Assembly (NCBI GenBank): GCA_964491875.1
Contig: CAZBIC010000004.1
Span: 132,878-196,877 of the forward strand
Source: an uncultured Bifidobacterium sp.
GTDB lineage: Bacteria > Verrucomicrobiota > Verrucomicrobiia > Limisphaerales > JADJPG01
Length of the DNA: 64,000 bases
Direction of reading: 5' to 3'
Both the position numbers and the translations under genes were made by a program. Of the stretch, positions 1,044 through 40,438 are shown one piece after another. Under the pieces are notes generated by a model. It saw only the letters and a program-made list of their open reading frames with translations, did no database searches and was not told where the DNA came from. How positions within the stretch are numbered: position 1 is the stretch's first letter; each line of letters begins with the position of its first letter.

Positions 1044-1293
1044 TTTACAGATTGAAGGGGGGCCGGTAGGGAAATGGGTGTCGCCCGGGCAAAAGGTGCC
1101 GTTGAAGCCGGGCGGCGGGCCGTGGAATGAAATCAATCGTCAAGCGCATGAACGCTCGTCCCCTGGCGCGGAGCATCTTTGGCAAATGGAGCAATTAGCA
1201 TAGTGGCCTTATCGAGCGTCCCCGTGGTTTTTCCCGAAAGGTTTGCTTCCCGGCTGCGTAATAACAGATGGAACCCTTGAATCAACATCAACT

Positions 1294-14736: not shown

Positions 14737-14747
14737 AGTTGAATCAA

Positions 14748-15758
14748 ATGAAAACCCCGCAAAATAAGAAGTTAATTCAGGCAATCTTGAACGACGACAC
14801 AGCGAAAGTGAAGTCGATGGTGGAACGCGGGCTCGACCCGAGGAAACGAATTAAGTGGAGTTCGATCGAGAATTTCACGCCACTTGAGTCGGCGGTAGCC
14901 AACAACTCCGTGTCCGTCATCACATACCTGCTCAAAGCCGGAGTGCCAGCAGACGATCCTCATGACCATTCATCTCCCCTAATGCGTGCATGCGCTATTG
15001 GCAATGTGAAGGTTATCGAACTGTTGCTTGCAGCCGGTGCTGATGTGAACCGTGAACAACGCTCTCCTTCATCTGATCGCGGGACCACAGCTTTGATGAT
15101 CGCAGCTAGTCGTGGTTATTTGCCTATCGTCAGGATGCTGTTAGACACAGGAGCAGATCCTAAAAAGCATACTCGTCTTGGCGCGAATGCTATTTCGCAG
15201 GCTGTTCCAAAAGGTAACTTGCCGGTAGTTAAGGAATTGGTTCGGTCTGGATGTCCTGTAACCGGCAAAGCTGTTATCCTGTCCGCCGATACAGGGAATT
15301 TGGATTTGCTCAAACTACTGCTTAAAGAGGGCGGAGATCCAAACTTTGTTGACGACGGAGTCCCCCATAAACACCTAAAGGGAGAGACAGCGTTGAGCAT
15401 TGCCGCGCGAAATAAGAACATAGATTTGGCAAAGTGTTTGATTGAGAATCGAGCCGATCCAAACCTCCCAGCGAATAAACTTTATCCTTTGTCGGGTGCA
15501 GCTTTTCAAGGCGATTTCAGAATGGTGAAGCTTCTTTTGGACGCTGGAGCCAAAACGGAAGTGGTTAATTTGGCGGGATACACTCCTCTAGGTTCCGCTT
15601 GTGAGATGGGGCACACTGAAATTGTGAAGCTACTGCTTTCGCATAATGCGGACTCAAGGGGTAAGGGGCGCAATCAGCTTGGAAGAGACGGTGAAACGCC
15701 AATCGAATTGGCCCAGCGAAAAGGTCACACGATGTTGCTGCACCTACTTCAAAAATAA
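14748..15758 (+). CDS. Ankyrin-repeat protein, putative cognate immunity protein
   Basis: ORF 14739..15758 begins 3 nt after the toxin stop (TTG 14739, ATG 14748). It has multiple ANK repeats (TPLESAV..LLKAGV, SPLMRACAIGNVKVIELLLAAGADVN, TALMIAASRGYLPIVRMLLDTGADP). The gene is lower in G+C. Confidence 0.85.
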   Translation: MKTPQNKKLIQAILNDDTAKVKSMVERGLDPRKRIKWSSIENFTPLESAVANNSVSVITYLLKAGVPADDPHDHSSPLMRACAIGNVKVIELLLAAGADVNREQRSPSSDRGTTALMIAASRGYLPIVRMLLDTGADPKKHTRLGANAISQAVPKGNLPVVKELVRSGCPVTGKAVILSADTGNLDLLKLLLKEGGDPNFVDDGVPHKHLKGETALSIAARNKNIDLAKCLIENRADPNLPANKLYPLSGAAFQGDFRMVKLLLDAGAKTEVVNLAGYTPLGSACEMGHTEIVKLLLSHNADSRGKGRNQLGRDGETPIELAQRKGHTMLLHLLQK

Positions 15759-20260: not shown

Positions 20261-21136
20261 TCACAAAGTCTCCGTCGCGCCAATCGATTCAAACTCCGCG
20301 AGGATGTCGGCATGGTTGGCGTTCAGGAAGCGGACGACCTTGGCGTTGTTCAGCAGTCTTTTGATGTAGCCGCTCGCAAACGTCAGGTTCAGCGTGTTTT
20401 CGCCGTAACACTTGTCCACTGTCTTCAAGTCCTGCTCCAGGGTTTCCATCTCCTCCTCCATGCGTGCGATGTCCTCTGCTGACAGTCCTTCTTTTTTCTT
20501 TGGTTCCTCCGGGCGCATCAGTTGGTCCTTGCGCGTCCCCATGAGGAGCGCCTCCGCGTAGATGTGGGAGTAATTGTTGCCGCTCACCATCAGCTCGGCC
20601 ATTTCGATCTGGCGCATGCCGGTAACCTTCTTCAACAGCCGGATGGTTTTTGGAGAAATGCCCTTGTCCTTGAGCAGATCCGCCGCCTCCTCGTGGATGC
20701 CGTCCAGGAGCGACATCGATGCCCGCACGATGCGGACGGGGATGTTGAGTGCCGCCGCGATTCGTTCTGGCCGGACACCGTTCTGCACCGCCTTCACGAT
20801 CATTTTGTGTTCCTGGACGGGGTTCAGCCGGTTGACCCGCGCGTTGTAGGTGAATGCCTCGTCATCCGTGGAAACGATGCAGTCGGCTTCGACTTCGCCG
20901 AGTTCTTTCAAGGCAAAATACCGGAAATGGCCGTCTAGCAGCAGATACTTTCCTGTCCCGTCCTTGTGTGGGTGGACCACGAGCGGCTCGATCAGCCCGG
21001 CTTCCTTGATGGTTGTCAGGATGGTCTTGTACCGCACACCGCAGTTCTGCAGGTCTTTGACCTGTCGCACCGGCAGGATGGCGTCGAGCGGAAGCCGCAG
21101 CTTCCGCATCTCAAATCCAAGTTTGGGCTCACTCAT
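20261..21136 (-). CDS. ParB/RepB-family protein (ParB N-terminal domain plus RepB-C-like region)
   Basis: LPLDAILPVRQV...EAGLIEPLVVHP...YLLLDGHFRYFALKELG is a ParB-box-like motif. A 4-nt overlap links it to the upstream gene. Confidence 0.8.
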   Translation of the reverse strand: MSEPKLGFEMRKLRLPLDAILPVRQVKDLQNCGVRYKTILTTIKEAGLIEPLVVHPHKDGTGKYLLLDGHFRYFALKELGEVEADCIVSTDDEAFTYNARVNRLNPVQEHKMIVKAVQNGVRPERIAAALNIPVRIVRASMSLLDGIHEEAADLLKDKGISPKTIRLLKKVTGMRQIEMAELMVSGNNYSHIYAEALLMGTRKDQLMRPEEPKKKEGLSAEDIARMEEEMETLEQDLKTVDKCYGENTLNLTFASGYIKRLLNNAKVVRFLNANHADILAEFESIGATETL

Positions 21137-22025
21137 TCTGCCTCCTTCGGTTTACTGCCTGATTTTTCCCATAGACGTCTCGGCATTGTGACCAGTGATT
21201 CAGCGCGAAGCAGGGTCATGAAATTTTCGTCACTCAACAGCCTGCTGAACGCAGTGACGATGAAGACCAGCTTTGCCTCGCAAAATTTCGCCTTCCGAAT
21301 CAGCAGCTTCTGCCGCTGGCGTTCACGTTTGTAGGTGTTCACCAGATTCTCGGCCCCGGTGCGGCTCTTGCGCGGGTTGCGTGCGACTTCGCCGCGCCGC
21401 TTGCCAAAGAAGCGCCGTCGTTCGATGAGTCGTTTCACGGTGCGGATGGACACTTGATTCAGTTGATTCGCCTCGTACGCCTTGAGCAGTTCCCGCTGTG
21501 CTTGCATGTCTTCCGTCCTGGCAATGTCCATCGCTACGCCCAGTGGAATCTGTCCGGTCACGGCTGCTTCGAGCAGACGCTCCTCGCCGGCGTTCTTCAA
21601 GGCGAGCAGGCCGCTGACCATAGTGTCGTAGATGTCACCAGCTTCCGGGCGATGTCGCCATTGCTGTGACCCCGCTCCTTGAGACGTTCGATTTCCCGCA
21701 TCAGTTCCAGCGGCGCGGTAGGGCGGCGGGCCATGTTCTCAATCAGGCTGCGCAGCAATCGTTCCTCCTTCGAAACCTCGACGACCATCGCTGGAATCTC
21801 CTTGTGGCCGAGCACGAGGAACGCCTCGATGCGGCCCTGGCCGCAAACCAAATCATAGCCCGGCCCCTCCGCCTCATCCGCCGAACGTAGGCTCACCTGA
21901 ATTGGCTTCTTCAGGCCGAGGTTTCGGATGCTCTGGACAATGGTTTCAAATTTTTTCCGGTCGCGGAGTCGAGGGTTCAGGATACGAATCCGGTCGATGG
22001 GAATCATTTGTATTTCGTCGTTCAC
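21133..22025 (-). pseudogene. ParB N-terminal-domain protein, split by a 1-nt frameshift near 21638-21640
   Basis: ORF 21597..22025 (IPIDRIRILNPR...PIQVS...YDLVCGQGRIEAF) ends ...GDIARKLVTSTT*. The other frame reads EAGDIYDTMVSGLLALKNAGEERLL and continues as ORF 21133..21621. Restoring one G (ctggtgac to ctgggtgac) fuses the two. Confidence 0.75.
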
Positions 22026-23570
22026 GCCGCCTCCTGAAGGTTGATGCGCTCCGCCATGTCAAAGAAACGGTCCAGAGTCTCGAATCGGTAGGTGTCCAGA
22101 TAAATGCTGTTTTCTTCCGCGACGCGGAGATTTTCCCACGTCATGTCGAGGGCAGGAAGCAGGTAGTAGTCGCGAACGCCCTCATTGGCCGCATCCATGC
22201 GAACCGCGATGGTGATGTCCGGCTTGAGGCCCGCATCCAACCGGATGACCCATCGCGACACCCCGGTGTTCGTCGTGGTGTGACGACACAGCACGATGGA
22301 GATTCGCAGTTCGTCGTTGAGATGGAGCAACTGGGTTTCGTCATCCCATCGTACGACCGCTCCCAACTTCTCAATCCGGCCAATGACCGCCGCCACGATT
22401 GCCGAGTGTTCATTGCGCAACCGGCGATTGATTTCGATGAACTTGTAATCAATTTCCGGGTCGTAGCCGATCAACCGATAGGCCGACACCAGGCTTCCAA
22501 ACCGGTGCCGGAAGGCTGCGCTGGATGGCAGGTTCTCCGCTTCATCAATGAGGATACCGCTGATGCGACCGTGCTGAATCAGCAGGCCACGGAGTTTTTC
22601 GATCATCTCTTCGTCGGTGAACTTTTGATTGCGGGCCAGAATAAGTTTCCGCGCCCGCTGAAATATATCGGGTTCGATAATACCTGCGAAAACGCCCTCC
22701 GCTCGAATCCACTTGTCCGGTGGATTGGTCACATGCTTGCGCTTCAGCTTGAAAGACGTGCGGTGATAGACATTGTTTCCGATGTATTTTTCATTGGTAA
22801 GCACCTGATGGATGGTGGCCCGCGTCCAAACCCGTTCAAGATCCGTGACGATTCCTTGTTCGTTTAGCACAGCCGCGATTTCCGACTCCATCTTCCCATC
22901 GTCGAGAAACGCCTTATAGATCCCCCCGCACGATCTTTACTTCTTCCTCCGGCCCCGGAACCAGCACCACTCGATCTGTCTGGAGGCACTTGTGCTCTCC
23001 CCGCTTGAGCAGGGCTTTGTGCTGTCCACTCTGATCGATCAACATCCGCCGCAGACCAAACCCGGCTGAGCCGCCCTGTTTGTAGCCGAGTTGAATCAGG
23101 CGGCACGCGCCCTTGAACACTTTCGACGAAAGCTCCCGGCTGTACTCGCCTGCCATCGCGCGCTTGACGCTCTTGACGATGGTGGATACCGGGCTGCCGT
23201 CGTTCTCGAACTGTTCCGCACAGTAATGGACTGCGACTCCGGCCTGGCGGCAGATGTACTCATGGTACGCGCTTTCGTCGGCATCCTGGAATCGTCCCCA
23301 CCGGCTCACGTCGTAAACAAGAATGCAGGAAAACTTCGCCTCACCGCTTTGCACGTCGCGAATCATCTGTGTCAGCGAGTCGCGCCCCTGGATGTTCAAG
23401 CCGCTTTTCCCCTCGTCTGAATACGTCCGCACAATCTCCAGGCCGCGACGCTTGGCGTCTTCCCGGATGACATCCATCTGGTTGCTCGTCGAGTACTGTT
23501 GATGCTCCGTGGACATCCGAACGTATGCCGCAGCCAGATTAGGTTTGAGATCCGCGCCGTCCGTGCTCAT
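22022..23570 (-). pseudogene. Large serine recombinase, split by a 1-nt insertion in a G6 tract (C6 at 22922-22927 on +)
   Basis: The N-terminal resolvase domain is AAAYVRMSTEHQ..S..NQ (catalytic Ser region) in ORF 22914..23570, ending EEVKIVRGDL*. The adjacent frame reads GIYKAFLDDGKMESEIAAVLNEQGI... (ORF 22022..22891, recombinase domain). Removing one G restores IVRGIYKAFLDDGK. Confidence 0.85.
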
Positions 23571-23576
23571 GTGCTT

Positions 23577-24092
23577 TCAAGTCCGGGTGATTGGTTTGCC
23601 TGCGGATGCAACCGCTTCTGCCGAAGATTTTCGGCGGAGAATCTCATGTCCCTTGGTTACCAGATGACGGCATGTCGCGGCGATGTCCTCTTGCAGCGTA
23701 CTGCCCGTCAATATGGAGACCAGCCCAAGTACCAAAGGGTCTTGAGGCAGACAGTCATCTTGTAGCGGTGAAAGCGCCGATCTTGGTTTGGAGCCTTTCG
23801 GCTGAATTGTTTCGACGAGACAGTCCTCTTGTAGCGCAATCCTCCACGGCGACGGTGATCGTTTCCAGTACTGAGGGTGGGCTTTGCGCCAGATACGCAC
23901 CCGTTCGACCTGCGCCGGCCCGCGCCAGTGATCTTTGTTCTCCGGCTTTTCTCGACACCGTCGCTGACTTGCCGCCTTGCTGGCCTTGCGGCACCTGGGT
24001 TGAGAACAAAACTCCTGGCGATCTCGGTTCCGGGCGTCGGGAACAAACACTCGCTGGCAACACGAACATCGGCGACGCGCTTTGGGTTTCAT
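23577..24092 (-). CDS. Hypothetical protein with N-terminal CxxC...C...C zinc-ribbon-like motif
   Basis: RRCSCCQRVFVPDARNRDRQEFCSQPRCRK. Internal LQEDC/LQDDC/LQEDI repeats. First gene of the recombinase cassette. Confidence 0.55.
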   Translation of the reverse strand: MKPKARRRCSCCQRVFVPDARNRDRQEFCSQPRCRKASKAASQRRCREKPENKDHWRGPAQVERVRIWRKAHPQYWKRSPSPWRIALQEDCLVETIQPKGSKPRSALSPLQDDCLPQDPLVLGLVSILTGSTLQEDIAATCRHLVTKGHEILRRKSSAEAVASAGKPITRT

Positions 24093-24602: not shown

Positions 24603-26216
24603 CTACTGCACCGCCAGCTTCCTGAGTTTCGAGTCAGGAACCGGAGTGGTGGCGGGACGGGCGCGGCCTTTGGCCCATTGGCGCAGGCCGGTGATTTGTT
24701 CAGCCATGAGTTTCGACAGTGGCATGAACGTAGTGAGAACTTGGGCAATGTCGAGGTCGGTTGGTTCGGTGTTGCGTTCAAACGCGGAGTACATCGCCTC
24801 CACGAAGGCGGTCTCGATTTCGGCTCCGGTGAAGCCATCGGTGGCCTTGGCGAGCGCGGCGATGTCATAGTCGCGCGGGTTACGGTCGTGGCGGGTGATC
24901 TGGAGTGTCCAGATGGTCTGGCGTTCTTCAGTGGTCGGGAGATCGACGAAGAACAGTTCATCGAAACGGCCCTTGCGCAACAACTCCGGTGGCAACTGGG
25001 CAACGTCGTTCGCGGTCGCAACGACAAAGACCGGCGACTGCTTTTCCTGCATCCAGTTCAGGAAGGTGCCGAACACGCGGGCACTGGTGCCACCGTCGCT
25101 TGACCCGGAGCTTTTAGCGCCACTGAACCCTTTCTCAATCTCGTCGATCCACAGGACAGCCGGGGCGATGGCTTCGGCGGTTTGCAGGACGGCCCGAAGG
25201 TTTCCCTCGGATTGACCCACCAGACTTCCGAACAGCCGCCCGGCATCCAGCCGAAGCAACGGAACGCCGAATACTCTGGCGGTGGCTTTCGCCGTGAGGG
25301 ATTTGCCAGTGCCGGGAAGCCCGAGGATGAGCAGTCCCTTGGGCAGCGGCAGTCCGTATTGCCGGGCGCGTTCGCCAAAGGCATCCTTCCTTGTCAGCAA
25401 CCAACGCTTGAGTTGATCGAGACCGCCGATGTCGTCGAGTGATTCCGTGGCTTCGATGATTTCGAGCAGACCGCTTTTCTTCACCGCCTGGGCTTTCTCG
25501 CGTGCGACGATGGCGGGTTCGATGGCGCGAGCCTGAACGAAGGACAGCGCGAACGCATTCTCGGCTTCGATGGTGGTGAGACCCGAAGCCGCCTCGATTG
25601 CCTTCTCCTGTTGCCCGGACTCCATTCTCTCAAGCCGAGCCGATTGCAGGATGCCGTGGAGGACGTGTCGCAGTGCGTCCTTGCCCGGCAACGCGAACTC
25701 TACGACAACCAGTTCCCGTTCCAGTTCCGGCGGCAGCACCAGCCGGCACCCAACAATGATGAGCGTCTTTTGCTTCGTCTTGCCCTCCAGCAGCGCGTCC
25801 TTGAGTTTGCGGAGCAACAGCGGGTTGGGGTCTTGAAGGAACAGGTGGTAGTCCTTGAGCAGAAACACCGCCCGGTCCTGGTGCTCGGTGATGGCCTGCA
25901 ACACGTCGAGCGGATCAGCGGCCTGATGGACCCGGTTGGTCTGTGTGTTCACCAGACCATCGGCCACTGACCAGTAGCAGAGTTGGTAACGTTCCTCCTC
26001 CTTGCGACTTCGGTTGAAGCATTCCATGACGGTTTTCAACTCTGCTTCGACGCGCTGTTCTTCCGGCGAAACGATATAGAGGCCGGGATAGCCGGCCTCG
26101 ATGTAGTGGGTGATTTTCGTGCCCGCTTCAGACGGCAAACTTGCGTTGTCCGAGCCTGGGCGGGGTGGGGATTTTTCTTTGGGCATGTTGGGATGGGGTT
26201 GGTTGCGCCGTGCCAT
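24603..26216 (-). CDS. AAA+ ATPase, Ycf46-like
   Basis: N-terminal [15 protein letters not shown] (Ycf46-type motif). Walker A GLPGTGKS, Walker [10 protein letters not shown]. Alternative start at 26186. Confidence 0.88.
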
Positions 26217-26427
26217 AGTCGTATGAGGCGGTGCAGTGGCGGCCGGCCGTGCCCAAGTCCACCCAGCGGGTGTGCTTGCAGGAACGGCTACCGTTGGCGG
26301 CCACGCGACGAGTCCAGCCCGCGCAGTTGCAGGACGTGGAGCCGTCGGCGTATTGCAACGTCTGGTATTCCACGTCCGGGTTGGAGTCGGAACGAAACGT
26401 CCAGACCCGCTGAATGGGCTTGTTCAT
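26128..26427 (-). CDS. SWIM zinc-finger protein
   Basis: CNCAGWTRRVAANGSRSCKH fits the CxCxnCxH SWIM signature. The 3' end overlaps the ATPase start. Confidence 0.65.
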   Translation of the reverse strand: MNKPIQRVWTFRSDSNPDVEYQTLQYADGSTSCNCAGWTRRVAANGSRSCKHTRWVDLGTAGRHCTASYDYGTAQPTPSQHAQRKIPTPPRLGQRKFAV

Positions 26428-26439
26428 GGCGTCATGGAA

Positions 26440-26667
26440 TTAGCGGTTGAAGTATTGGTGTTCCCACGCCAGGCAGGCCGTGCGGAGCGAATGCTGATAC
26501 ATCAGTTCGCCCTGCGCGTCCCTGACCTCCCATTGCTGGGTGGAGTGGTTGTGTTCGATGGCGGAGGCTCGGGTGATTTCGAGCGGGCCGAGGGCGGCAA
26601 GGTCCAATGCCTCTGTGTAGAGACAATGGACCTGACCATGAGGGTCGAAGGTGAGGACATGGTGCAT
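26440..26667 (-). CDS. Hypothetical 75-aa protein
   Basis: ATG at 26667 with GGAGG 11 nt upstream. Tightly packed in the operon. Confidence 0.5.
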   Translation of the reverse strand: MHHVLTFDPHGQVHCLYTEALDLAALGPLEITRASAIEHNHSTQQWEVRDAQGELMYQHSLRTACLAWEHQYFNR

Positions 26668-26674
26668 GAGTTGT

Positions 26675-26869
26675 TCAACCTCCAACCTGTTGCTGACGTT
26701 GAGTGATGCGACGCTGCTGGAACTCTGGCTTGCGCTGGCGGACCTGAACGGCGCCCAACGCTTCTTCGAGGAAGCGGGTGGCTTGTTCACAGTCCGGGCC
26801 TTTGAACCCGATGGCGTCGATTTGGATCTCGCCCGAGGGAGAGATGAGGATTTCGAGAGTGCGTTTCAT
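26675..26869 (-). CDS. DUF2997-like small protein
   Basis: MKRTLEILISPSGEIQIDAIGFKGPDCEQATRFLEEALG matches the remembered DUF2997 pattern. Confidence 0.7.
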   Translation of the reverse strand: MKRTLEILISPSGEIQIDAIGFKGPDCEQATRFLEEALGAVQVRQRKPEFQQRRITQRQQQVGG

Positions 26870-26871
26870 GA

Positions 26872-27249
26872 TTAAACTCCGGCGAGGATGAGTTTGATGG
26901 AACCGTTGCGTTGAGGCTGGCGCAGCACCGACAGTCCCTTGCGGCGGGCTTCCTTGCTGGCCTTGTGGATGCCGTAGAGTTGAAGCAGCCGGCCATACTC
27001 CTTGCCGACTTCCTGTTCGACATGGCCGTTCCACCAGTCGGTGGTGAGACCGAAGGTGCCGTCCGGCTGTTGGTTCACGGCGATGTCGAACGGGCCTTTC
27101 AGGCGCACAACATAATCGCCATGCCTTTGAGTGGTGCCGTAACCGCGAGCGTCAGCGTTTTGGAGGAGCGCGAGATCCAGCTCCGCACTGGCGGCCCGCA
27201 AGGATTCAATGTCTTTGATTTGCGTGTTGATGGTGGTGAAGTGTGACAT
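26872..27249 (-). CDS. DUF1257 (Ycf35-like) protein
   Basis: MSHFTTINTQIKDIESLRAA... is a typical DUF1257 N-terminus. The stop lies 2 nt before the DUF2997 start. Confidence 0.75.
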   Translation of the reverse strand: MSHFTTINTQIKDIESLRAASAELDLALLQNADARGYGTTQRHGDYVVRLKGPFDIAVNQQPDGTFGLTTDWWNGHVEQEVGKEYGRLLQLYGIHKASKEARRKGLSVLRQPQRNGSIKLILAGV

Positions 27250-27323: not shown

Positions 27324-27512
27324 TTACCGGCTGGACTCGATCTCGATTTCATCCAGGTGAACGATGAGTTGAGCGCCGAGGCCGTATGGTTCCCGCTGCA
27401 AGACGAGGTTGATGAGGTCCACGGCTTCACGAACCTGCTGCTCGTTGTTACCGTGGGTGGTTTGGCTGGCGTCGAACCGCAGGGACAGCCGATGGACGGT
27501 GATGATTTTCAT
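27324..27512 (-). CDS. Hypothetical 62-aa protein
   Basis: 4-nt start/stop overlap with the upstream gene. Confidence 0.45.
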   Translation of the reverse strand: MKIITVHRLSLRFDASQTTHGNNEQQVREAVDLINLVLQREPYGLGAQLIVHLDEIEIESSR

Positions 27513-27832
27513 GGCGACTTGAGTGACCGGCGAGTTTTGGTTTCGCGTCGTCTGCGGGCTGGTCGCGACGCAGGTGGACGCTGAACCGGCGGCTCACCGA
27601 TGAGTTCGGTCAGCGTCATTTCCAGTGAAGGCAGAGAGGCGCGGCCCTGAACAAAGACGCGCTCATTGGTGGAACCGTTTTCCCAGCACGGGCTGGCGTC
27701 CACGTTCTTGAATTTCCCCTCGCGCAGAGCCTTCCTGATGATCCGCAGCGCGGCCTTCTCATTCCTGGCCGTCACGACGAAGTCGGCGAAGCAGGCGATG
27801 TCGTGGGCGTAGGAACAGGTGTATTTTGGCAT
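27509..27832 (-). CDS. Hypothetical 107-aa protein with basic C-terminal tail
   Basis: MPKYTCSYAHDIACFADFVVTARNEKAALRIIRKAL... with ATG at 27832. Confidence 0.5.
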   Translation of the reverse strand: MPKYTCSYAHDIACFADFVVTARNEKAALRIIRKALREGKFKNVDASPCWENGSTNERVFVQGRASLPSLEMTLTELIGEPPVQRPPASRPARRRRETKTRRSLKSP

Positions 27833-27858
27833 GGTGATTTCGGGTTGGGAGCGGGGGC

Positions 27859-28281
27859 TCAGGTCGTGTGTTGGTTCAACCACTCGCTGGTGCTCATGGC
27901 TTTGATCTCAGTGGCGGTGACGATGGCCGCGCCTCCTCCGTAGGCATCCGTGCGCGGCTTGGAACAGTCGTGCGACCACTCGAACGTCACCCGTCCCTGC
28001 GGATCAAACCGCTGGAGCAGGTGCTGGATGAAGAGGCAGACGGCATCAATGCCACCGTTGCTGGAGTGCAGCCACAGCGCCGGTTTGTCCCCAGCGGTGT
28101 CGGGCTCGATGTCGAAGCGCCAGTCCTCGATGAGGTCGGCGAGTTCCTTGGGGAAGTCGGCGGGCGGTTCATCGCCTTGCTGGATGCGGCTGGTTTGCGT
28201 GGCTAGTTCGAGCGCGTAACTCTGGGCTTCTGCACTGGGCAGGGTGAGGATGAGACTGAAGTGAGTAAAATAATCGGCCAT
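27859..28281 (-). CDS. Hypothetical 140-aa acidic protein
   Basis: Clean ORF within the operon. No motif recognised. Confidence 0.6.
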   Translation of the reverse strand: MADYFTHFSLILTLPSAEAQSYALELATQTSRIQQGDEPPADFPKELADLIEDWRFDIEPDTAGDKPALWLHSSNGGIDAVCLFIQHLLQRFDPQGRVTFEWSHDCSKPRTDAYGGGAAIVTATEIKAMSTSEWLNQHTT

Positions 28282-28352: not shown

Positions 28353-29369
28353 CTAGGCGGCCGCCAGGTTGAATCTGCGCCGGCCGAGTTCACCGAAGCG
28401 GTTGACCAGTTCGGTGGTGTCTTGTTGAGCCAGACGACGGGCTTCCTGCGAGAGCCGGGACAAGCCCTGTGTGAGCTGCGTTCGGGCCGTCGCGCTGTCG
28501 CGGTATTGTTCGGCGGTGCGACCGAGCAATTCCCGGCGGACTTGTTCCAGCCGCTGTTCCATCTCGGTGTCGTTGGCGAAGTTCAACTGCTTGAACTCGT
28601 CGATGAACCGGACCAGCCGGTTGAGCGTGCGCTGATGCACGCCGGTCTCACCGGTCTGGATGCTGTGCAGCATGTCGTCGCACAGTTGGGCGGTCTGTTC
28701 GCGCAACGCCGCCACGCAATCCGACACGAACGTCTCCACGTCCGCCCGGATCTTTGCACCGGCCGAAGCCGCTGCTGTCTGCCGGGCCGTGATGAGCTGC
28801 TGTTGGTCCGTCGCGTTCACAAGGTCCACCCCGAGACGTTCCGGGACGGCGATTTGAAACAACTGCTGGTCGAACCCGAAGGATCGTTCCAACCGTTGGA
28901 CCGGCGGGAACGATGCTTCGATGGTGGCGACGAGCCGTGCCGGATCGTTCACCAGCTTGCGGGCCATCGTAAGCCATTCCCTGGCGGCACTGTCCCGCAG
29001 ACCGCCATAGCGTTCGATGAACCGTTGCTTGGCCTGCCAGAACTCGGCTTCGAGTTCCCGGAGTTTCGCTGTCACTTCCGCCAGCCGGGCGTTGGGAAGG
29101 AAGTGTGCCAGCCCGTTGAGGAACGGGAAGGTGTTGGCCTCCACGAACGCATGGGCACGGCTTTCGACCAGCGTGAGGGCGGCCGTCGCCTCCTTGGGCA
29201 ACAGCCGTTTGTGCCCGAGCGAAATCAACCGCTCGGACAACGCCGAAGCGTCCAGCCCGATGTCTTCGGGCCGGAGCTTCTTTTGTCCACGCCAGTAGCG
29301 CACCGACACGCTCAGGAGCACGCCCTCGCGGGTGAGCACTTCGAGCAGATGAGGATGTGGAGTGGTCAT
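28353..29369 (-). CDS. DUF3150-like protein
   Basis: VSVRYWRGQKKLRPEDIGL...LISLGHKRLLPKEA...FPFLNGLAHFLP...ELEAEFWQAKQRFIERY matches the remembered DUF3150 pattern. ATG at 29369. Confidence 0.7.
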   Translation of the reverse strand: MTTPHPHLLEVLTREGVLLSVSVRYWRGQKKLRPEDIGLDASALSERLISLGHKRLLPKEATAALTLVESRAHAFVEANTFPFLNGLAHFLPNARLAEVTAKLRELEAEFWQAKQRFIERYGGLRDSAAREWLTMARKLVNDPARLVATIEASFPPVQRLERSFGFDQQLFQIAVPERLGVDLVNATDQQQLITARQTAAASAGAKIRADVETFVSDCVAALREQTAQLCDDMLHSIQTGETGVHQRTLNRLVRFIDEFKQLNFANDTEMEQRLEQVRRELLGRTAEQYRDSATARTQLTQGLSRLSQEARRLAQQDTTELVNRFGELGRRRFNLAAA

Positions 29370-29624: not shown

Positions 29625-31139
29625 TTACAACTGCACGCGCTGCAGGCTGCGGAGCGTGCGACGCACGGACTCGGTTTCCTGGGTGATGGTCCGGCTTTCC
29701 TTCTCGGCCGCCTTGAGCAGGCCGCCGGCATTGTTCACCTGTGCGGCAAGTTCGCGCAGGGTGCTCCGGATGGTTTCGAGATGCTCCACGGCGGCGCGAA
29801 GCGCGGACGGGCTGGCTTCCGTCTCACCGTTGACGGGTTGAGGTCTTGGAGCGGATGGATTGGGTGCTGGCATGGTATTCCTTTCTTGTTCCGTCGGATT
29901 TTCAGACGGCGGCACGGACGGGGGCGTGGCCGCCGTTGTCTCAGGAGGAGAAGGGGAGGCCACCGCTGGAGACCTGGGTGGTAGTGAGCTGGGTGGTTCG
30001 GTGGTGGAGGAACCTTCTCGCATGACCGCCACCACGAGGCGGCGCCCGCCCTGACGAAACACCAGCGGGATGTTGGGATCGCGCAGTTCGATTTCGTTCA
30101 AACCCCACCGCAGGGCTTTGGCGAGATAGATGCGGTTGAAACGGACGCACCTTGATTTGCCCTGCACGCTGGTCGTGGCGATTTCGACGGTGGCCCAGGC
30201 ATCACGTTCGTTGGCCCGGCCTTTGAGCCAGAGTTTTCCTTCGCGCACTTCGAGCATGACCACCTGATTGGCTTCATCGCTGACCGGGAGGCGCGGAGAG
30301 GATTCCAGCAATTGCGCCACGCTCCGTTCATTCAGGACAACGTGGGTGAACTCTTCCTTTTCTGACGGTGGCACCGTGCGCCAGTCGGGATAATTGCCTT
30401 CGATGGCCCGGGTGAGGAACGTCCATCGGGCCGAGGCAACCTGCACCCACGTGCGTTCTTTCCCGGCGGCCGGCCGCAGTCCGAGCGTCCAGCCGCCGTC
30501 CTCCGCGAACGCCGGCCAGAGCAGGAACTTCCGGCTCGGGACGATGAAGGACGCGCGAAGATCCAGCGTGAACGAGTTGGCGCAGTAGAGATGCTGGCCG
30601 TCGGTGCCGACCAGATAACTGCCGCTGCGCCGTCCGACATCCACGTAGGCGCCGTTGATGACCGGCCGGGATGATTCGCTGCCCGCGCAGTCGAGTGCTT
30701 CCCGCAGTGACCGTTTGAACGCACCGTCCACCGCCGAGGCGGACTCGATGACGGGCGGCTCCTTGGGCCAGTCGTCGCCGTAAGGCACCTCGAAGCATTT
30801 CTCGATCGAGCTGGGGCCGATGAAGTAACGCAGCTTCACGCGATCCTTCTCGTCACGCGTCAGGTGAAGCCGTTCCTGCGTCGGGCAGGTTTTGACGAGT
30901 TGTTTGAGCGCGTCCAACGGGACCACCAGAGTGGTGGCCGGCCCCGCCTGCGCCTCCGGCGTCCGGTAGGTGAGGAACGAGTCCAGGTCTGTGGTTTGCA
31001 GTGTGACCGCGCCGCTCTTGCTGCGGGCCACTCGCACGGCTTGCAGCACCGGCAGATGACTTGATTTGCTGACGACTTTGTTCAGGCCGGCGAGCGCAGT
31101 CTTTAACTCGTCCACCGGCAGTTCGATTGCTTGGTTCAT
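29625..31139 (-). CDS. DnaN-like beta sliding clamp with Pro/Ser linker and C-terminal coiled-coil extension
   Basis: The N-terminus ELKTALAGLNKVVSKSSHLPVLQAVRVARSKSGAVTLQTTDLDSF mirrors the DnaN start (PILsnvll...ltaTDle). About 370 aa of clamp-like sequence is followed by a PPSSLPPRSP...PSVPPSENP linker and a helical tail. Confidence 0.7.
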   Translation of the reverse strand: MNQAIELPVDELKTALAGLNKVVSKSSHLPVLQAVRVARSKSGAVTLQTTDLDSFLTYRTPEAQAGPATTLVVPLDALKQLVKTCPTQERLHLTRDEKDRVKLRYFIGPSSIEKCFEVPYGDDWPKEPPVIESASAVDGAFKRSLREALDCAGSESSRPVINGAYVDVGRRSGSYLVGTDGQHLYCANSFTLDLRASFIVPSRKFLLWPAFAEDGGWTLGLRPAAGKERTWVQVASARWTFLTRAIEGNYPDWRTVPPSEKEEFTHVVLNERSVAQLLESSPRLPVSDEANQVVMLEVREGKLWLKGRANERDAWATVEIATTSVQGKSRCVRFNRIYLAKALRWGLNEIELRDPNIPLVFRQGGRRLVVAVMREGSSTTEPPSSLPPRSPAVASPSPPETTAATPPSVPPSENPTEQERNTMPAPNPSAPRPQPVNGETEASPSALRAAVEHLETIRSTLRELAAQVNNAGGLLKAAEKESRTITQETESVRRTLRSLQRVQL

Positions 31140-31288: not shown

Positions 31289-31483
31289 CTACATGATGGT
31301 CCGGCCCTTGGAGGGCATCCGCCGCGTGTGGCTGCGAATGAACTCTTTCAACTGCGCTTCGCAGGCGAAGAGGAACTGACTGGAGACGCGGGTGAAGCGG
31401 TGCGCCCTCACCTTGGAGGATTCGAGCGCGAACTGCCGGACCCGGCTGCGATTGATCAGGATGGTCTTGAGTTCGGCGCTCAC
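31289..31483 (-). CDS. Hypothetical 64-aa protein (GTG start overlapping the ligase stop as GTGA)
   Basis: VSAELKTILINRSRVRQFALESSKVRAHRFTRVSSQFLFACEAQLKEFIRSH... Possibly histone-fold-like, but that is unverified. Confidence 0.35.
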   Translation of the reverse strand: MSAELKTILINRSRVRQFALESSKVRAHRFTRVSSQFLFACEAQLKEFIRSHTRRMPSKGRTIM

Positions 31484-32568
31484 GGTTCGTTCTCCTCGTC
31501 GGCCGGTTTGTATTTGAGTTGACCGACCGTGCATTCGCGCTCGCTCACATCCGACCGGGGGCCGAGATACGTCGGCTGATAGAGACAGCCGCTCTCCGGG
31601 AACGCATACAGGTAACGAACCTCGACCACGCTCCCGATGACGGGCACCCGATGATTGGGTGGAATGGTGACGTTGCCCGCCACAGTCCACTGCCTACCGT
31701 CGCGCAGTTTGAGTTCGACGCTTCGCTGGGCGTTCTGTTTTCCAACGACCGCCGACAGTGTCGCGTAGAACTTGTGTTTTAATTGAGAGCCTCCGCTGCT
31801 GGGTCGCCCAGATGTGTAGGGCGCATCCAGCCGCTTGAACACCACGCCCTCCCGTTTCTGGAAACGCAGGTGTTCCAGCAGGCTGTTCTTCTCGGTCAAC
31901 CGATAGGTCGTGTTGACGTAGTGGATGTGCCGCTGTTGCCCGGACATCAGCAGATTGAGCAACGCGGTGAGGCGCTGGCGATACGGCATCGGCCGCTGGT
32001 CCTCACCATTGAGTTCCAGCAGATCGAAACAGTGGAGCGTTTCGCCCACGGCTTCTCCATCCAGGATGAAGTCGCCGGGGATCGCGTGCGCCGCCACAAG
32101 GATCGGCGAGGGCAGTCCGACGTGCAGTCCCTTGCGGTTGATCCCGTGAATGGCTGCTCCCTGCTTGCGCACCAGCATCCGCCGGCCATCAAACTTTTCC
32201 TGCATGGCCCAGGCGTCGTCCGTGACGAGCCGTTCGATTTCACCTTCGTCGATTGCATTGAGCAACTGCGGCACAACGTCCGTCTGCCGTTGCTCCTTGT
32301 CGCTCTGCTGATAAGAAATTCCGTCCGGACCGGGCGTGTAACCCTTGGCTTGCTTCTCTTTCACCAGCTTTTCGAAGATGCGCCGGGCATCCTGATAGTC
32401 CACCGGCACGTTGGTCTTGGTCCCGGTGTTGAAGGTCGCGCCTCGTCGCCCATAGGCGAAGTTCACGACGAATCGTTCACCCGCCGGTTCAATGCCGCAC
32501 TGATACACTTTGTCGGACGCGCCCTCCCGGTAGTAGAGCGTGATGCTGTCTGGTTCTGTCGTGGTCAT
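31480..32568 (-). CDS. WGR-domain / ATP-dependent DNA ligase fusion
   Basis: WGR-like N-terminus (LYYREGASDKVYQCGIEP..FVVNFAYGRRG...KLVKEKQAKGY). Ligase motif I EKFDGRR, FILDGEAV, EGVVFKRLDAPY and LKHKF are present. ATG at 32568 is preceded by a GGAAA RBS-like sequence. Confidence 0.85.
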   Translation of the reverse strand: MTTTEPDSITLYYREGASDKVYQCGIEPAGERFVVNFAYGRRGATFNTGTKTNVPVDYQDARRIFEKLVKEKQAKGYTPGPDGISYQQSDKEQRQTDVVPQLLNAIDEGEIERLVTDDAWAMQEKFDGRRMLVRKQGAAIHGINRKGLHVGLPSPILVAAHAIPGDFILDGEAVGETLHCFDLLELNGEDQRPMPYRQRLTALLNLLMSGQQRHIHYVNTTYRLTEKNSLLEHLRFQKREGVVFKRLDAPYTSGRPSSGGSQLKHKFYATLSAVVGKQNAQRSVELKLRDGRQWTVAGNVTIPPNHRVPVIGSVVEVRYLYAFPESGCLYQPTYLGPRSDVSERECTVGQLKYKPADEENEP

Positions 32569-32612
32569 GATTTTCCTTTCTGGTTGGTGAAGACAGGCCA
32601 GCCTGCGCGTCA

Positions 32613-32888
32613 TCAGCGCCCGGCCTGCGTTCTGGTTTTGGTGGTTGATTCCTCGTCGAGGCATTGTGTGGCGTCGTTGGGAACAAGGGCCACGCGCTCC
32701 CATTCAAAGACGCCAATCTCTCCGTAGTTGTGATGGCGGACTTTGAAGTCGATTTCGGGTGCTTCAGGATCGGGCGCGAGTTCCGTCACGGTCGCGATGC
32801 CGCCGGGATATTCTCCGATGGCCTCGGTCTCGACCCGTCGCCCGATGAGTGATGGGCCGTGAATGATAGTAAGTTGCTTCGCTGTCAT
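32613..32888 (-). CDS. Hypothetical 91-aa protein
   Basis: MTAKQLTIIHGPSLIGRRVETEAIGEYPGG... with ATG at 32888. Confidence 0.45.
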   Translation of the reverse strand: MTAKQLTIIHGPSLIGRRVETEAIGEYPGGIATVTELAPDPEAPEIDFKVRHHNYGEIGVFEWERVALVPNDATQCLDEESTTKTRTQAGR

Positions 32889-32973: not shown

Positions 32974-33831
32974 CTAACGTGGACTTGATCGAGGTGGTCG
33001 TTCCGCTCCCGTCCAAGCGCGGCATTCGTTGAAGTATTCGCAGAACGAACAATTGAAACCCGGCGAGGGCACGAAGTCCTTTCGCGCCACTCCATCCAGG
33101 TACGACTCGATGCCGCGAAACAACCGGCTCCGTTGCATCTCGGTCATCGGGCCGAGCGGCGTGATGATGACCTTCGGGGTCTTGAGCTTCACCAGATGGT
33201 GCAGTTCCACGCCGCCCTCCCGTCGCCCGGTTGTTTCGCGATACAGGATCGAGTAGCAGGAGGTCTGGCCTTCGTGCAGATGTGCGGCCTTCCCGGCATC
33301 AGGCGTTTTGCCCGACGTTTTGAAGTCCACGATGCGGCCACCGGCCCGCACTAGGTCTATGACGCCAATCAGCGTCGGCAGCCCGTGCCGGGACAAGTCG
33401 GCCTCGACCCGGGCCTCGACTGCCTCGGGCCGCTCGTCGGCTTTGATGGGGGTTTCAATCCAGTAGCTCTCCAAGACGGCCCACGCGGTCTTGCGTTCGG
33501 CTTCTTCTTCACCGTCCCAGCGGATCAAGACTCCTTTCTGCAACTCCGGCCATTGCTGGTCGAACACCTTCCGAAACCGTTCGGTGCTGAACGTCTCCTT
33601 CCGCCACCGAGCCAAGTTCCACGCCTGCAGGACCGCGTGGACCACGCTGCCGACGTGTAGCGATGGGGTCGGTCGCTTTGACAATCGCAGCACGTAGCGG
33701 AAATAGAACTTCAACCGGCATTGCTGCCAGCAACCCAGCCGTGACGCCGAGATGGTACGTTGAAGTTCCACGATGGGGTCAACCGGCGGTGGCATCAGCT
33801 TCAGAGCCGGACGTTCTCCAAGGGCGTTCAT
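32974..33831 (-). CDS. PD-(D/E)xK nuclease, Cas4/RecB-like with Cys cluster
   Basis: GVIDLV...RIVDFKTS (D...DxK), QTSCY (QxxxY), N-terminal CWQQC and C-terminal CSFCEYFNEC (CxxCx5C, typical of the Cas4 Fe-S ligand pattern). Confidence 0.8.
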   Translation of the reverse strand: MNALGERPALKLMPPPVDPIVELQRTISASRLGCWQQCRLKFYFRYVLRLSKRPTPSLHVGSVVHAVLQAWNLARWRKETFSTERFRKVFDQQWPELQKGVLIRWDGEEEAERKTAWAVLESYWIETPIKADERPEAVEARVEADLSRHGLPTLIGVIDLVRAGGRIVDFKTSGKTPDAGKAAHLHEGQTSCYSILYRETTGRREGGVELHHLVKLKTPKVIITPLGPMTEMQRSRLFRGIESYLDGVARKDFVPSPGFNCSFCEYFNECRAWTGAERPPRSSPR

Positions 33832-35034: not shown

Positions 35035-36279
35035 TCATTGGACATTTCCTTTCGCCAAGTCGCCGATCAAAACATCGACTGTCTGTTCTTCGTGGACGGC
35101 ACCGCCAGCCGCGTGCATGGCCGGCATCAATTCACTGTCCCAACTTGCCGCGACCGGGACGCCTGCAAGTGCTAGGAAGTACTTCCGGGCCGCCAGATAA
35201 TCATCCGCGCCCATTCGCCACGGTTCGGCGTTGTGACGGGCTACAATGGTGTTTGCAATCTGGATACCGGGCCAGTCGAAATCCCCGTGATATGCAAGCC
35301 GGACGCCGGTGCCTTGCAGCCGATTAAGCAGGAGGCGGGTTGCTGTGCGCGGCTGGCCTTCGATGCACACGAGCGGCCGGCAATTTGAACCGAGCCGGTT
35401 CGCGGCGGCGGCGACCACGCTAGGGTTTTCGCAGACGAAAACGACTGGCCCAACGCTTTCGCGCGTGAATTCAGGCGGCGCTCGCAGGAGTTGGCGAATC
35501 GACAAATAGGTTGGCTCCCCAGCATCCGCATAAGCTCGGAGCACTCGGCCCGTCGGGCGGTCGTCCAGAGCGCGTAAATTCAAGACCAGGACCGGCGCGC
35601 TCAACTCGTCGCAAATGATCCCCACACTGGCCCAGGCGTCACGGCGCGATTGCGCGTCGTCGCATTTCTCGCATTTTCCCAGCGCGGCAATGGCGCGAAC
35701 GGTGAGCGAGCCAAGGGGAGTATCCGGGTCGAGGGCATGAGCGTCGCCGAAAACACTCGCCGCCAGTTCGGCAAGAGTGACATCACGGGCCGGCAAAACG
35801 GCCAGAACATCGAGCGTTTTGGACAGTAGCATTTCCGCCAACGTGATTCCGTGCCGTCGCAGCGAACCGTTGGCGCGCAGTTGCAACAGCCAATTCTCCA
35901 ATTCTGGCCGACCAGCAACCTGCTTCGAGGCGGAGGTGAAGATGTGGTTCCATTGGTTTTCGACCTCATTACGTTCGGCGCGGCGGTCCATCACTGGACC
36001 AATGAGTTCTTCAATGGCTTCTCGGAGGGTTGGGGAAATACCAGCCGTGCGGAGTTTTTCGTCCAGCCGGTCGAGCGAAACAGCAACGGTACTTCCTCGC
36101 GTGGGAGTTCTTCCAAGAAGCCGATTGATGGCGTCGCGTTCCGCTGCGGTTGCGTCGGGGAGGGCCAATGTCCCCTGGAGAGCCATGCCGCGTTCAAGCC
36201 GTGTGCGCAATCGTTGCACCAGCCTTTGCAGTTCAGGGCGGCCCAGAGCCTCCTGAAGTCGTACGCGGTCGCCGGTCAT
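35035..36279 (-). CDS. jetD: Wadjet JetD-like Toprim nuclease (TIGR02679/DUF2399-type)
   Basis: C-terminal Toprim signature VFVCENPS (Glu) and YHGDFDWPG (DxD). 4-nt overlap with jetC. Confidence 0.8.
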   Translation of the reverse strand: MTGDRVRLQEALGRPELQRLVQRLRTRLERGMALQGTLALPDATAAERDAINRLLGRTPTRGSTVAVSLDRLDEKLRTAGISPTLREAIEELIGPVMDRRAERNEVENQWNHIFTSASKQVAGRPELENWLLQLRANGSLRRHGITLAEMLLSKTLDVLAVLPARDVTLAELAASVFGDAHALDPDTPLGSLTVRAIAALGKCEKCDDAQSRRDAWASVGIICDELSAPVLVLNLRALDDRPTGRVLRAYADAGEPTYLSIRQLLRAPPEFTRESVGPVVFVCENPSVVAAAANRLGSNCRPLVCIEGQPRTATRLLLNRLQGTGVRLAYHGDFDWPGIQIANTIVARHNAEPWRMGADDYLAARKYFLALAGVPVAASWDSELMPAMHAAGGAVHEEQTVDVLIGDLAKGNVQ

Positions 36280-40436: not shown

Positions 40437-40438
40437 GT

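Follow-up and report, generated by a model that had tools for sequence, protein, structure and literature searches.

We analyzed a 64,000-nucleotide stretch of contig CAZBIC010000004.1 (the window), from an uncultured bacterium placed by GTDB in the Verrucomicrobiota, and focused on a block of minus-strand genes at 24603-27249 that encodes a Ycf46-like AAA+ ATPase together with the small proteins DUF1257 (the Ycf35 family) and DUF2997. The ATPase, DUF1257 and the upstream DUF3150 protein all have their nearest homologues in metagenome-assembled genomes of Verrucomicrobiota or Limisphaerales, and genes of the same families recur side by side in bacteria, archaea, plasmids and viral contigs. The open reading frames (ORFs) of the block and those just upstream are as follows.

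24603-26186, minus strand: Ycf46-like AAA+ ATPase, 527 aa (Pfam AAA and AAA_lid_3; phrog_8638)
26128-26427, minus strand: 99-aa SWIM-type zinc-finger-like protein (CxC-x16-CxH motif only)
26440-26667, minus strand: 75-aa protein, here called U75 (phrog_38408; without a Pfam family)
26675-26869, minus strand: DUF2997 protein, 64 aa (PF11211; phrog_23133)
26872-27249, minus strand: DUF1257 (Ycf35-family) protein, 125 aa (PF06868; phrog_20456)
27324-28281, minus strand: three small ORFs (62, 124/107 and 140 aa), clade-specific fillers between DUF3150 and DUF1257
28353-29369, minus strand: DUF3150 protein, 338 aa (PF11348, E 1e-24)

An initial annotation, made from the sequence alone, had described the ATPase, a SWIM zinc finger, the 75-aa protein, DUF2997 and DUF1257 as contiguous, and these are indeed five packed minus-strand ORFs, whose gene calls are identical in public assemblies of the same element. 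Only 2, 7 and 12 nt separate DUF1257, DUF2997, U75 and the 99-aa gene, in that order, while the 99-aa gene overlaps the start of the ATPase gene by 59 nt (26128-26186) in a different frame. The start of DUF1257 is its conserved MSHF at 27249; gene callers also pick 27264 and 27312. Including DUF3150, the genes read in the order DUF3150, DUF1257, DUF2997, U75, SWIM-type protein, ATPase. The three small ORFs at 27324-28281 have no match in Pfam, NCBIfam, PADLOC or PHROG, and their homologues occur only in a closely related metagenomic clade. Comparison with metagenomic relatives gave median ratios of nonsynonymous to synonymous substitution (dN/dS) of 0.19-0.42 for all six genes tested, the five core ORFs and DUF3150, figures that are rough because dS is close to saturation. 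On these values U75 and the 99-aa ORF, which belong to no described family, behave as real genes.

Two strong, GC-rich 14-bp stem-loops with T-rich tails lie on the minus strand, one at 28342-28311, directly after the DUF3150 stop, and the other at 31202-31170, preceding a DnaN-like gene. They may be terminators or attenuators, which would separate DUF3150 transcriptionally from the genes running from DUF1257 to the ATPase. A scan of the window found no sigma-70-like promoter for the operon.

The ATPase consists of an N-terminal family-specific domain of ~240 aa followed by one classical-clade AAA domain with its lid. It matches PF00004 (E 7e-30, 104.6 bits against a cut-off of 21.2), AAA_lid_3 (E 3e-8, 33.4 bits, above threshold) and, over its full length, phrog_8638 (E 6e-137), whereas NCBIfam and PADLOC return generic AAA similarities only. 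Walker A (GLPGTGKS), Walker B (LWIDEIEK) and a double Arg finger, read from the translation, are all intact, and by these motifs the AAA module is catalytically competent. The two Pfam matches, the Walker motifs and the arginines of the second region of homology are all present, and by these marks the protein is a classical-clade AAA+ ATPase. At the position equivalent to pore loop 1 (GSLVGQSE) it carries Leu in place of an aromatic residue.

When the family profile was compared with the PDB, the nearest solved AAA domains were those of Cdc48/p97/VAT (E ~1e-84), with which the window ATPase shares Walker A, Walker B and the double Arg finger. It differs from them in having a single active AAA ring, a pore-loop Leu and an N-domain unrelated to that of Cdc48. 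Alignment of this N-domain with the family's own AAA domain by hhalign (E 2e-4, 67 columns, probability 47%) covers the part from sensor 1 to the lid and suggests, without proving it, that the N-domain is a degenerate AAA fold. Searched alone, the N-domain matches 2587 representatives of 50%-identity clusters, 973 of them at E<=1e-10; most are proteins of ~500-550 aa with the domain at the N terminus.

Neither Pfam nor NCBIfam has a Ycf46-specific model. The label Ycf46-like refers to full-length homology to AAA proteins of cyanobacterial plasmids: identity to the protein of a Geminocystis plasmid is 42% over residues 38-523, and values for Pseudanabaena, Planktothrix and Microcystis plasmid proteins are similar. 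Ycf46 itself (Synpcc7942_0417, slr0374) is, at ~500 aa, similar in size to the window ATPase, and we take it to share the layout of a specific N-terminal domain and one classical AAA domain. The window ATPase differs in its setting: its gene lies in an operon with DUF1257 and DUF2997, on a mobile island in a genome that resembles those of Verrucomicrobiota. Ycf46 has been reported to interact with KaiC, to be induced by stress and to affect carbon concentration, by a mechanism that is unclear (bioRxiv 10.1101/2025.07.21.665879).

Full-length homologues of the ATPase are also found in 34 phage genomes, mostly of Corndog-like mycobacteriophages, and include Corndog gp96 (locus L003, 5914-8503; 32% identity). 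Next to gp96 lies gp95, a member of a helical family of ~290 aa that replaces the DUF1257/DUF2997 pair in 15 loci and whose comparison with DUF3150 by hhalign gives a probability of 22%. Six of seven unusually long members of the ATPase family proved to carry inteins with LAGLIDADG or HNH homing endonucleases in the AAA domain, inserted near the P-loop or at about model position 60. Inteins tend to occupy conserved, important genes, such as those of replication and repair.

Both partner families named in the initial annotation were recovered, like AAA, above Pfam gathering thresholds. DUF1257 matches PF06868 with E 9e-9 (35.9 bits against a gathering cut-off of 22.2, model positions 4-103 of 103) and DUF2997 matches PF11211 over the full model, 1-47, with E 1.8e-14 (53.8 bits against 24.1). 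Homologues of DUF1257 are mostly 125 aa long with an MSHF N terminus; an MSH[FY]T start and DWW and DG.I.L blocks are common to the family, cyanophage members having the same start, and the conserved positions include the N-terminal Met-Ser-His, Arg35, Asp55, Asp71-Trp-Trp, Gln90 and Tyr92. The AlphaFold2 model of DUF1257 (mean per-residue confidence, pLDDT, 88.5; predicted template-modelling score, pTM, 0.80) has the topology beta-alpha-beta4-long alpha-beta2. Foldseek found no neighbour for it in the PDB (best E 0.035, template-modelling score <= 0.46) and only two unnamed viral homologues in BFVD, and profiles of DUF1257 and DUF2997 compared with the PDB gave only noise. Within the DUF2997 domain of ~47 residues, Gly13 is invariant and Gly24 and Cys27 are at least 90% conserved among 45 aligned homologues; the window protein has all three.

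U75 and the 99-aa protein have no Pfam match even at E<=1. U75 matches phrog_38408 (E 9.5e-7) and has the core CLYTEAI.L..LG.L...RA..IEF....Q.W.V...SR..CL.WE; its homologues adjoin DUF2997, DUF1257 and the ATPase in Verrucomicrobiota, Victivallales, a Nitrospirota plasmid and IMG/VR contigs. In the 99-aa protein, the proposed SWIM finger stands as a motif and not as a domain match: the signature C-x-C-x16-C-x-H is at least 90% conserved in 32 distinct homologues, whereas a match to PF04434 is absent at E<=1, and SWIM-type is used here in that sense. The gene has a dN/dS of 0.32, and its conserved C-terminal tail, P[RK]LG[QH]RKF.V (LGQRKFAV in the window), is encoded where it overlaps the ATPase start; the tail may serve as a recognition tag, or the two genes may be coupled in translation through the overlap. 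DUF3150 is predicted to consist mostly of long helices (AlphaFold2 pLDDT 71.9, pTM 0.43), and a fold search with its model returned no match, all E>1. Comparison of U75 with DUF2997, and of other pairs of partner families, by hhalign gave no convincing match.

To place the block in a wider context, we examined loci anchored on the ATPase, taking the best 80 from GTDB genomes and the best 80 from IMG/VR (38-64% ATPase identity). Loci flanked by 3 kb or more on each side, 119 in all, made up the analysis set; they came from GTDB genomes, IMG/VR contigs, plasmids and phages. Partners were detected among stop-to-stop ORFs with hidden Markov models (HMMs) iterated on the same loci, so that the percentages are estimates for this sample; some IMG/VR loci are near-duplicates. 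DUF1257 and/or DUF2997 lie within 6 kb of the ATPase gene and on the same strand in 61/119 loci, and both do in 53/119. When the loci are collapsed at >=70% ATPase identity into 89 clusters, 51/89 have at least one of the two and 43/89 have both. Every DUF match that lies within 3 kb is on the strand of the ATPase gene. A family occurring about once per genome should turn up inside a 12-kb interval around any one gene much less often than in 1% of cases, a figure reasoned and not computed. The adjacency noted in the initial annotation is therefore not unique to this locus.

The hosts span Verrucomicrobiota, Lentisphaerota (Victivallales), Armatimonadota, Chloroflexota, Myxococcota, Planctomycetota, Nitrospirota, Bacillota and Actinomycetota, and further include cyanobacteria/Melainabacteria, several archaea and IMG/VR viral contigs of up to ~0.5 Mb. 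Annotated plasmids of four phyla carry the ATPase with DUF1257 and/or DUF2997. Among plasmids, Paenibacillus polymyxa pPPM1a encodes the ATPase, both DUF proteins and a 4Fe-4S protein, and a Ca. Manganitrophus plasmid has the ATPase, both DUF proteins and DUF3150; on a Bacillus cereus plasmid the ATPase accompanies DUF2997, and on the Geminocystis plasmid it is, by annotation, associated with DUF family genes. Recurrent neighbours are ParB, a DnaN-like clamp, a ligase, a RecA-like protein, a superfamily 1 (SF1) helicase, DnaB, primase and SbcCD-like proteins. In the Treponema, Arthrobacter and Corndog loci, phmmer with single proteins of the window detected no DUF partner; the iterated HMMs detected DUF2997 and an iron-sulphur (FeS) protein in the Arthrobacter locus and an FeS protein in the Treponema locus.

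Such linkage might reflect nothing more than shared inheritance on one element, with the genes having no joint function. Many of the loci are related and their counts are not independent, since only 89 clusters remain of the 119 when they are collapsed at 70% ATPase identity, and the island in the window bears signs of decay in its split serine recombinase and split ParB. However, the co-occurrence holds at 20-45% protein identity across more than 10 phyla, archaea and viruses, it survives rearranged gene order and different flanking genes, co-orientation is constant, and all the genes are under purifying selection. Nearest neighbours in the ATPase family also share their partner set in 90/119 cases, where 26 +/- 5 would be expected, an agreement that partly reflects common descent. 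We consider hitch-hiking very unlikely, and the core trio of ATPase, DUF1257 and DUF2997 probably work together, as judged from this pattern of linkage. The proteins of the module may form a physical complex.

A closer look at gene content reveals several flavours of the module. The window belongs to a DUF3150 flavour, whose five families lie co-oriented within ~6 kb, with the order DUF3150, DUF1257, DUF2997, U75, (SWIM), ATPase. The same set is present in ten other loci, in three of which (a Nitrospirota plasmid and two viral contigs) the genes are in shuffled order; two more loci are near-complete, one without a detected DUF3150 and the other without a confident DUF2997 match. DUF3150 is found in 18/89 ATPase clusters, always with the DUF1257/DUF2997 pair. 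In the window's own clade, represented by 80 metagenome contigs with 62-82% DUF1257 identity, loci with adequate flanks carry DUF2997 in 57/57, U75 in 16/16, the ATPase in 15/16, upstream DUF3150 in 22/22 and the SWIM-type protein in 9/16 cases. The gene set first proposed was thus incomplete, as it left out DUF3150 despite its conservation upstream in all 22 close relatives. Among the 160 ATPase-anchored loci the SWIM-type protein occurs in four.

Other loci combine the pair with different partners or none. A NrdG-like radical-SAM protein is encoded in 25 loci, 24 of which also have the pair, often in the order DUF2997, FeS, DUF1257. This protein matches Fer4_12 (E 2e-31) and Radical_SAM, with NrdG the best model at 99-119 bits, below its 126-bit cut-off, and no NrdD-sized gene lies next to it in those loci. 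In gut Clostridiales and Melainabacteria the order is helix-hairpin-helix protein, FeS, ATPase, DUF1257, DUF2997; in archaeal and IMG/VR loci it is ATPase, SF1 helicase, further genes, DUF2997, DUF1257, FeS; and IMG/VR contigs of 155-181 kb have JAB and ThiF, then after other genes ParB, ATPase, a RecA-like protein, DUF2997, FeS and DUF1257. In nine IMG/VR loci a PRTRC-like cassette (JAB, ThiF/E1-like, two unknowns, ParB) directly precedes the module. The ATPase and DUF2997 genes of these loci have a RecA/KaiC-superfamily gene between them, and KaiC is the protein with which cyanobacterial Ycf46 is reported to interact. The window itself was considered as such a cassette and rejected, as ThiF and JAB HMMs built from related loci match nothing in it. 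Finally, in 16 loci the pair and the ATPase stand alone.

The pair and the ATPase also occur apart. A DUF1257-anchored search of IMG/VR recovered eight fragments of T4-like cyanophages (marked by psbA, gp25/gp6-like baseplate genes and transaldolase) in which DUF2997 and DUF1257 overlap in that order, as at L177:1769-2614. No Ycf46-like ATPase was found within 8 kb in these fragments, and in 6/8 a CxxC...CxxC zinc-ribbon ORF of 80-90 aa follows the pair. DUF2997 adjoins DUF1257 in 10/10 viral loci; these ten and the window's clade are the sets in which the share of DUF1257 genes near the ATPase was measured. A hierarchy emerges in which DUF1257 and DUF2997 are an invariant pair, essentially always together; the ATPase is the pair's commonest partner, although neither requires the other; and DUF3150 and U75 define the window's flavour, the SWIM-type protein being a lineage-specific, optional accessory. 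This refines the proposal in the initial annotation that all five proteins work as one machine. Recurrent, co-oriented linkage speaks for it, but the SWIM-type protein is optional, U75 belongs to the DUF3150 flavour only, DUF3150 had been omitted and the ATPase is not obligate.

Several known systems share parts of this arrangement. Cyanobacterial cluster g (PMC4284462), which also includes the ferredoxin Fed7, has the same two Pfam families side by side and the same MSHF start of DUF1257; in the window the order is reversed, with DUF1257 preceding DUF2997, the ferredoxin is absent and the host is non-photosynthetic, while the ATPase, DUF3150, U75 and the SWIM-type protein are added. The SXT/R391 integrative and conjugative element (ICE)/MOBH plasmid block likewise places DUF3150 beside an AAA+ ATPase in a mobile element; outside the module, DUF3150 is typically found on such elements. 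In ICE R997 (L172, 5200-10205) and pQBR55 (L173, 5402-9943), DUF3150 lies between a MoxR/CobS-like AAA protein and a VWA protein, inside the ssb-bet/recT-exo...radC recombination-repair region. However, the ATPase of that block is MoxR-like and not classical, its partner is VWA, and it has neither DUF1257 nor DUF2997. As for the glycyl-radical activases (NrdG, PflA), an NrdG-like protein is the commonest extra partner of the DUF pair elsewhere but is absent from the window: the FeS HMM, with 36 matches in other loci, has none there.

These partners raise the possibility that the module serves a redox or metal cofactor, the pair being scaffold, carrier or client of an Fe-S, radical or metal centre, and the ATPase an activase that would load, repair or reset the centre, as Rubisco activase/CbbQO, NorQD and CobST do. 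Cys27 of DUF2997 and the N-terminal Met-Ser-His of DUF1257 would be the relevant features, and the NrdG-like protein, Fed7 and the zinc-ribbon or SWIM-type proteins the relevant partners. Such a role best explains the association of the NrdG-like protein with the pair in 24/25 loci, often interleaved with it and without an NrdD-sized gene beside it; that protein's matches to Fer4_12, Radical_SAM and, best, NrdG accord with it. The role also best explains the cyanobacterial duf2997-ycf35-fed7 cluster (PMC4284462), the zinc-ribbon ORF after the cyanophage copies and the CxC..CxH protein in the window operon. The position of DUF3150 between a MoxR/CobS-like AAA protein and VWA, a pairing typical of metalloenzyme activases, in SXT/R391-type ICEs and pQBR55 points the same way, as does the retention of ycf35 and ycf46 in red algae, which was tied by the authors to iron availability (PMC5940233). 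Against this, the window has no radical-SAM or ferredoxin gene recognized by the FeS HMM, no metal-binding partner was detected in the 16 loci with pair and ATPase, and a cluster would need more ligands than a single conserved Cys and a single conserved His, unless oligomers form. The MSH start is absent from membrane-anchored DUF1257 variants, and the glycyl-radical motif RVxG[FWY] was not seen by eye in the DUF1257 or DUF2997 alignments. We regard a redox role of this general kind, the chief alternative to the reading favoured below, as somewhat unlikely. The more specific proposal, that DUF1257 and DUF2997 form an unrecognized small redox or metal (Fe-S or radical) module that is serviced by Ycf46 and partners NrdG-like enzymes, ferredoxins and zinc fingers, is doubtful; if true, it would explain both the plastid and cyanobacterial orphans ycf35 and ycf46 and an operon used by phages, plasmids and ICEs in replication or establishment.

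The remainder of the window shows the island in which the module resides. Upstream on the same strand, the three small ORFs and DUF3150 are followed by a DnaN-like clamp, a WGR ligase, a PD-(D/E)XK nuclease and Wadjet II; downstream of the ATPase come a serine recombinase in two ORFs and then three ParB/RepB ORFs. The features outside the module are these.

1243-14736, plus strand: 4497-aa ORF with VWA, several bacterial Ig/cadherin-like domains, DUF6531 and RHS repeats
14739-15758, plus strand: ankyrin-repeat protein, directly after the Rhs ORF
20261-21136, minus strand: intact ParB/RepB gene
21133-21621, minus strand: RepB ORF
21597-22025, minus strand: ParB_N ORF
22022-22891, minus strand: Recombinase ORF, half of a split large serine recombinase
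22914-23570, minus strand: Resolvase ORF, the other half, in another frame
23577-24092, minus strand: 171-aa Arg/Cys-rich ORF
29625-31139, minus strand: DnaN-like sliding clamp with an extra ~130-residue Pro/Ser-rich, coiled-coil tail
31480-32613, minus strand: WGR-domain ATP-dependent ligase
32974-33831, minus strand: Cas4-like PD-(D/E)XK nuclease
35035-43281, minus strand, as the module: complete Wadjet type II, JetA2-D2 (PADLOC; TIGR02677 and TIGR02679 above cut-off)
35035-36279, minus strand: JetD2 (PADLOC E 7e-141)
36276-40436, minus strand: JetC2 (PADLOC E 0)
40439-41704, minus strand: JetB2 (PADLOC E 5e-133)
41701-43281, minus strand: JetA2 (PADLOC E 9e-171)

DnaN-like genes recur upstream in loci related to the window. 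The ParB_N and RepB ORFs resemble a second, broken version of the intact ParB/RepB gene next to them, and the recombinase and ParB splits are also present in two other samples; given these splits, the island may be immobilized or decaying. Between the ATPase and the recombinase, the 171-aa ORF has CSCC...C...C motifs and no Pfam or PADLOC match, and the gene is also called in other samples. The 4497-aa ORF looks, from its domains, like an Rhs-type polymorphic toxin, and the ankyrin-repeat protein might be its immunity or partner protein; the GC content falls to 0.51-0.54 at 13-16 kb of the window. Housekeeping genes (RNase Y, RarA/MgsA-type ATPase, shikimate dehydrogenase) run from ~47 kb onward, and neither a tRNA nor flanking direct (att-like) repeats that would delimit the island were found in the window. 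The recombinase, ParB/RepB, Wadjet II and Rhs genes, with the Verrucomicrobiota homologues, bear out the mobile, defence-adjacent and non-cyanobacterial context that had been proposed for the genes.

Such surroundings invite a defensive interpretation, in which the module is an anti-phage or anti-plasmid system with the ATPase as an IetA-related sensor or effector, or as a Wadjet accessory. PADLOC IetA models do match the ATPase (best E 1e-23), as does NCBIfam IteA, and IetA of the IetAS (IteAS) system is likewise a classical AAA protein; the complete Wadjet II at 35035-43281 is on the same strand, and the putative Rhs toxin lies at 1243-14736. However, the IetA matches cover the generic AAA core only (model 113-315 of 374) and fall below the scores of Cdc48, FtsH and PAN, the N-domain and partners differ, no IetS-like protease is found among the neighbours, and the small proteins have no PADLOC match. 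Membership in IetAS was rejected, given the partial IetA match and the missing IetS protease. Moreover, the module is found in phage genomes and in large IMG/VR contigs among replication genes, and on plasmids beside ParB, whereas no Wadjet genes were recognized in the 30 largest recurrent neighbour families, which are partly annotated. Wadjet type II is a neighbour of the module and not part of it. Across loci, the module is set among genes for replication, partition and recombination on mobile elements and not in defence islands; Wadjet and the Rhs ORF happen to be close by here. A defence function is quite improbable.

We favour, at a probability of roughly 0.45, the reading that the locus represents an accessory operon, widespread among phages, plasmids and integrated elements, which encodes a protein remodeller and a DUF1257/DUF2997 cofactor pair. 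The ATPase would act as a hexameric, ATP-driven remodeller or unfoldase, similar to Cdc48, and DUF1257 and DUF2997 would form a 1:1 heterodimer serving as its cofactor, adaptor or dedicated client. Lineage-specific extras would direct it to targets: DUF3150, U75 and the SWIM-type protein here, and elsewhere the NrdG-like radical-SAM protein with a helix-hairpin-helix protein, a RecA-like protein or an SF1 helicase. Its task may be to help the mobile element replicate its own DNA, partition or become established, for instance by taking apart a protein complex on DNA, and not to defend the host. The 34 phage genomes, the inteins and the replication and partition neighbours point to the importance of the module to mobile elements. 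Independent support for a connection between Ycf35 and Ycf46 comes from the correlated presence and absence of ycf35 and ycf46 across 127 red-algal plastid genomes (PMC5940233), and the duf2997-ycf35-fed7 cluster of cyanobacteria (PMC4284462) fits such a partnership.

Several observations weigh on the other side. No structural homology links DUF1257, DUF2997, U75 or DUF3150 to any activity, and the pore-loop Leu replaces the aromatic residue typical of translocating AAA unfoldases, so that threading is not assured. The ATPase can work without the pair, since 41/119 loci have none of these partners and 15 have a Corndog gp95-like neighbour instead; conversely, the T4-like cyanophages carry the pair without the ATPase. 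A simple adaptor does not explain the strong association of the pair with Fe-S and metal proteins (the NrdG-like protein in 24/25, Fed7, zinc fingers). The locus counts, too, depend on ORFs delimited from stop to stop, on HMMs that were iterated on the very loci they then scored, and on taking the best 80 per collection.

In the full-text literature searched, no description of this module came up. Read as an AAA+ remodeller with small partners of its own, the module links two old orphan families to a testable operon. For decades, ycf35 and ycf46 have figured among plastid and cyanobacterial genes with no mechanism attached. Their families form, with DUF2997, an operon of co-oriented genes that heterotrophic bacteria, archaea, plasmids and phages carry, and this makes a hypothesis concrete: one ATPase with a two-protein cofactor. 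Plasmids of Paenibacillus, Bacillus and actinobacteria could offer easier access to the pair than plastids do, and mycobacteriophage Corndog could do so for the ATPase on its own. For the biology of mobile elements, the module adds a recurrent, unannotated component beside ParB, clamp, ligase and RecA-type genes.

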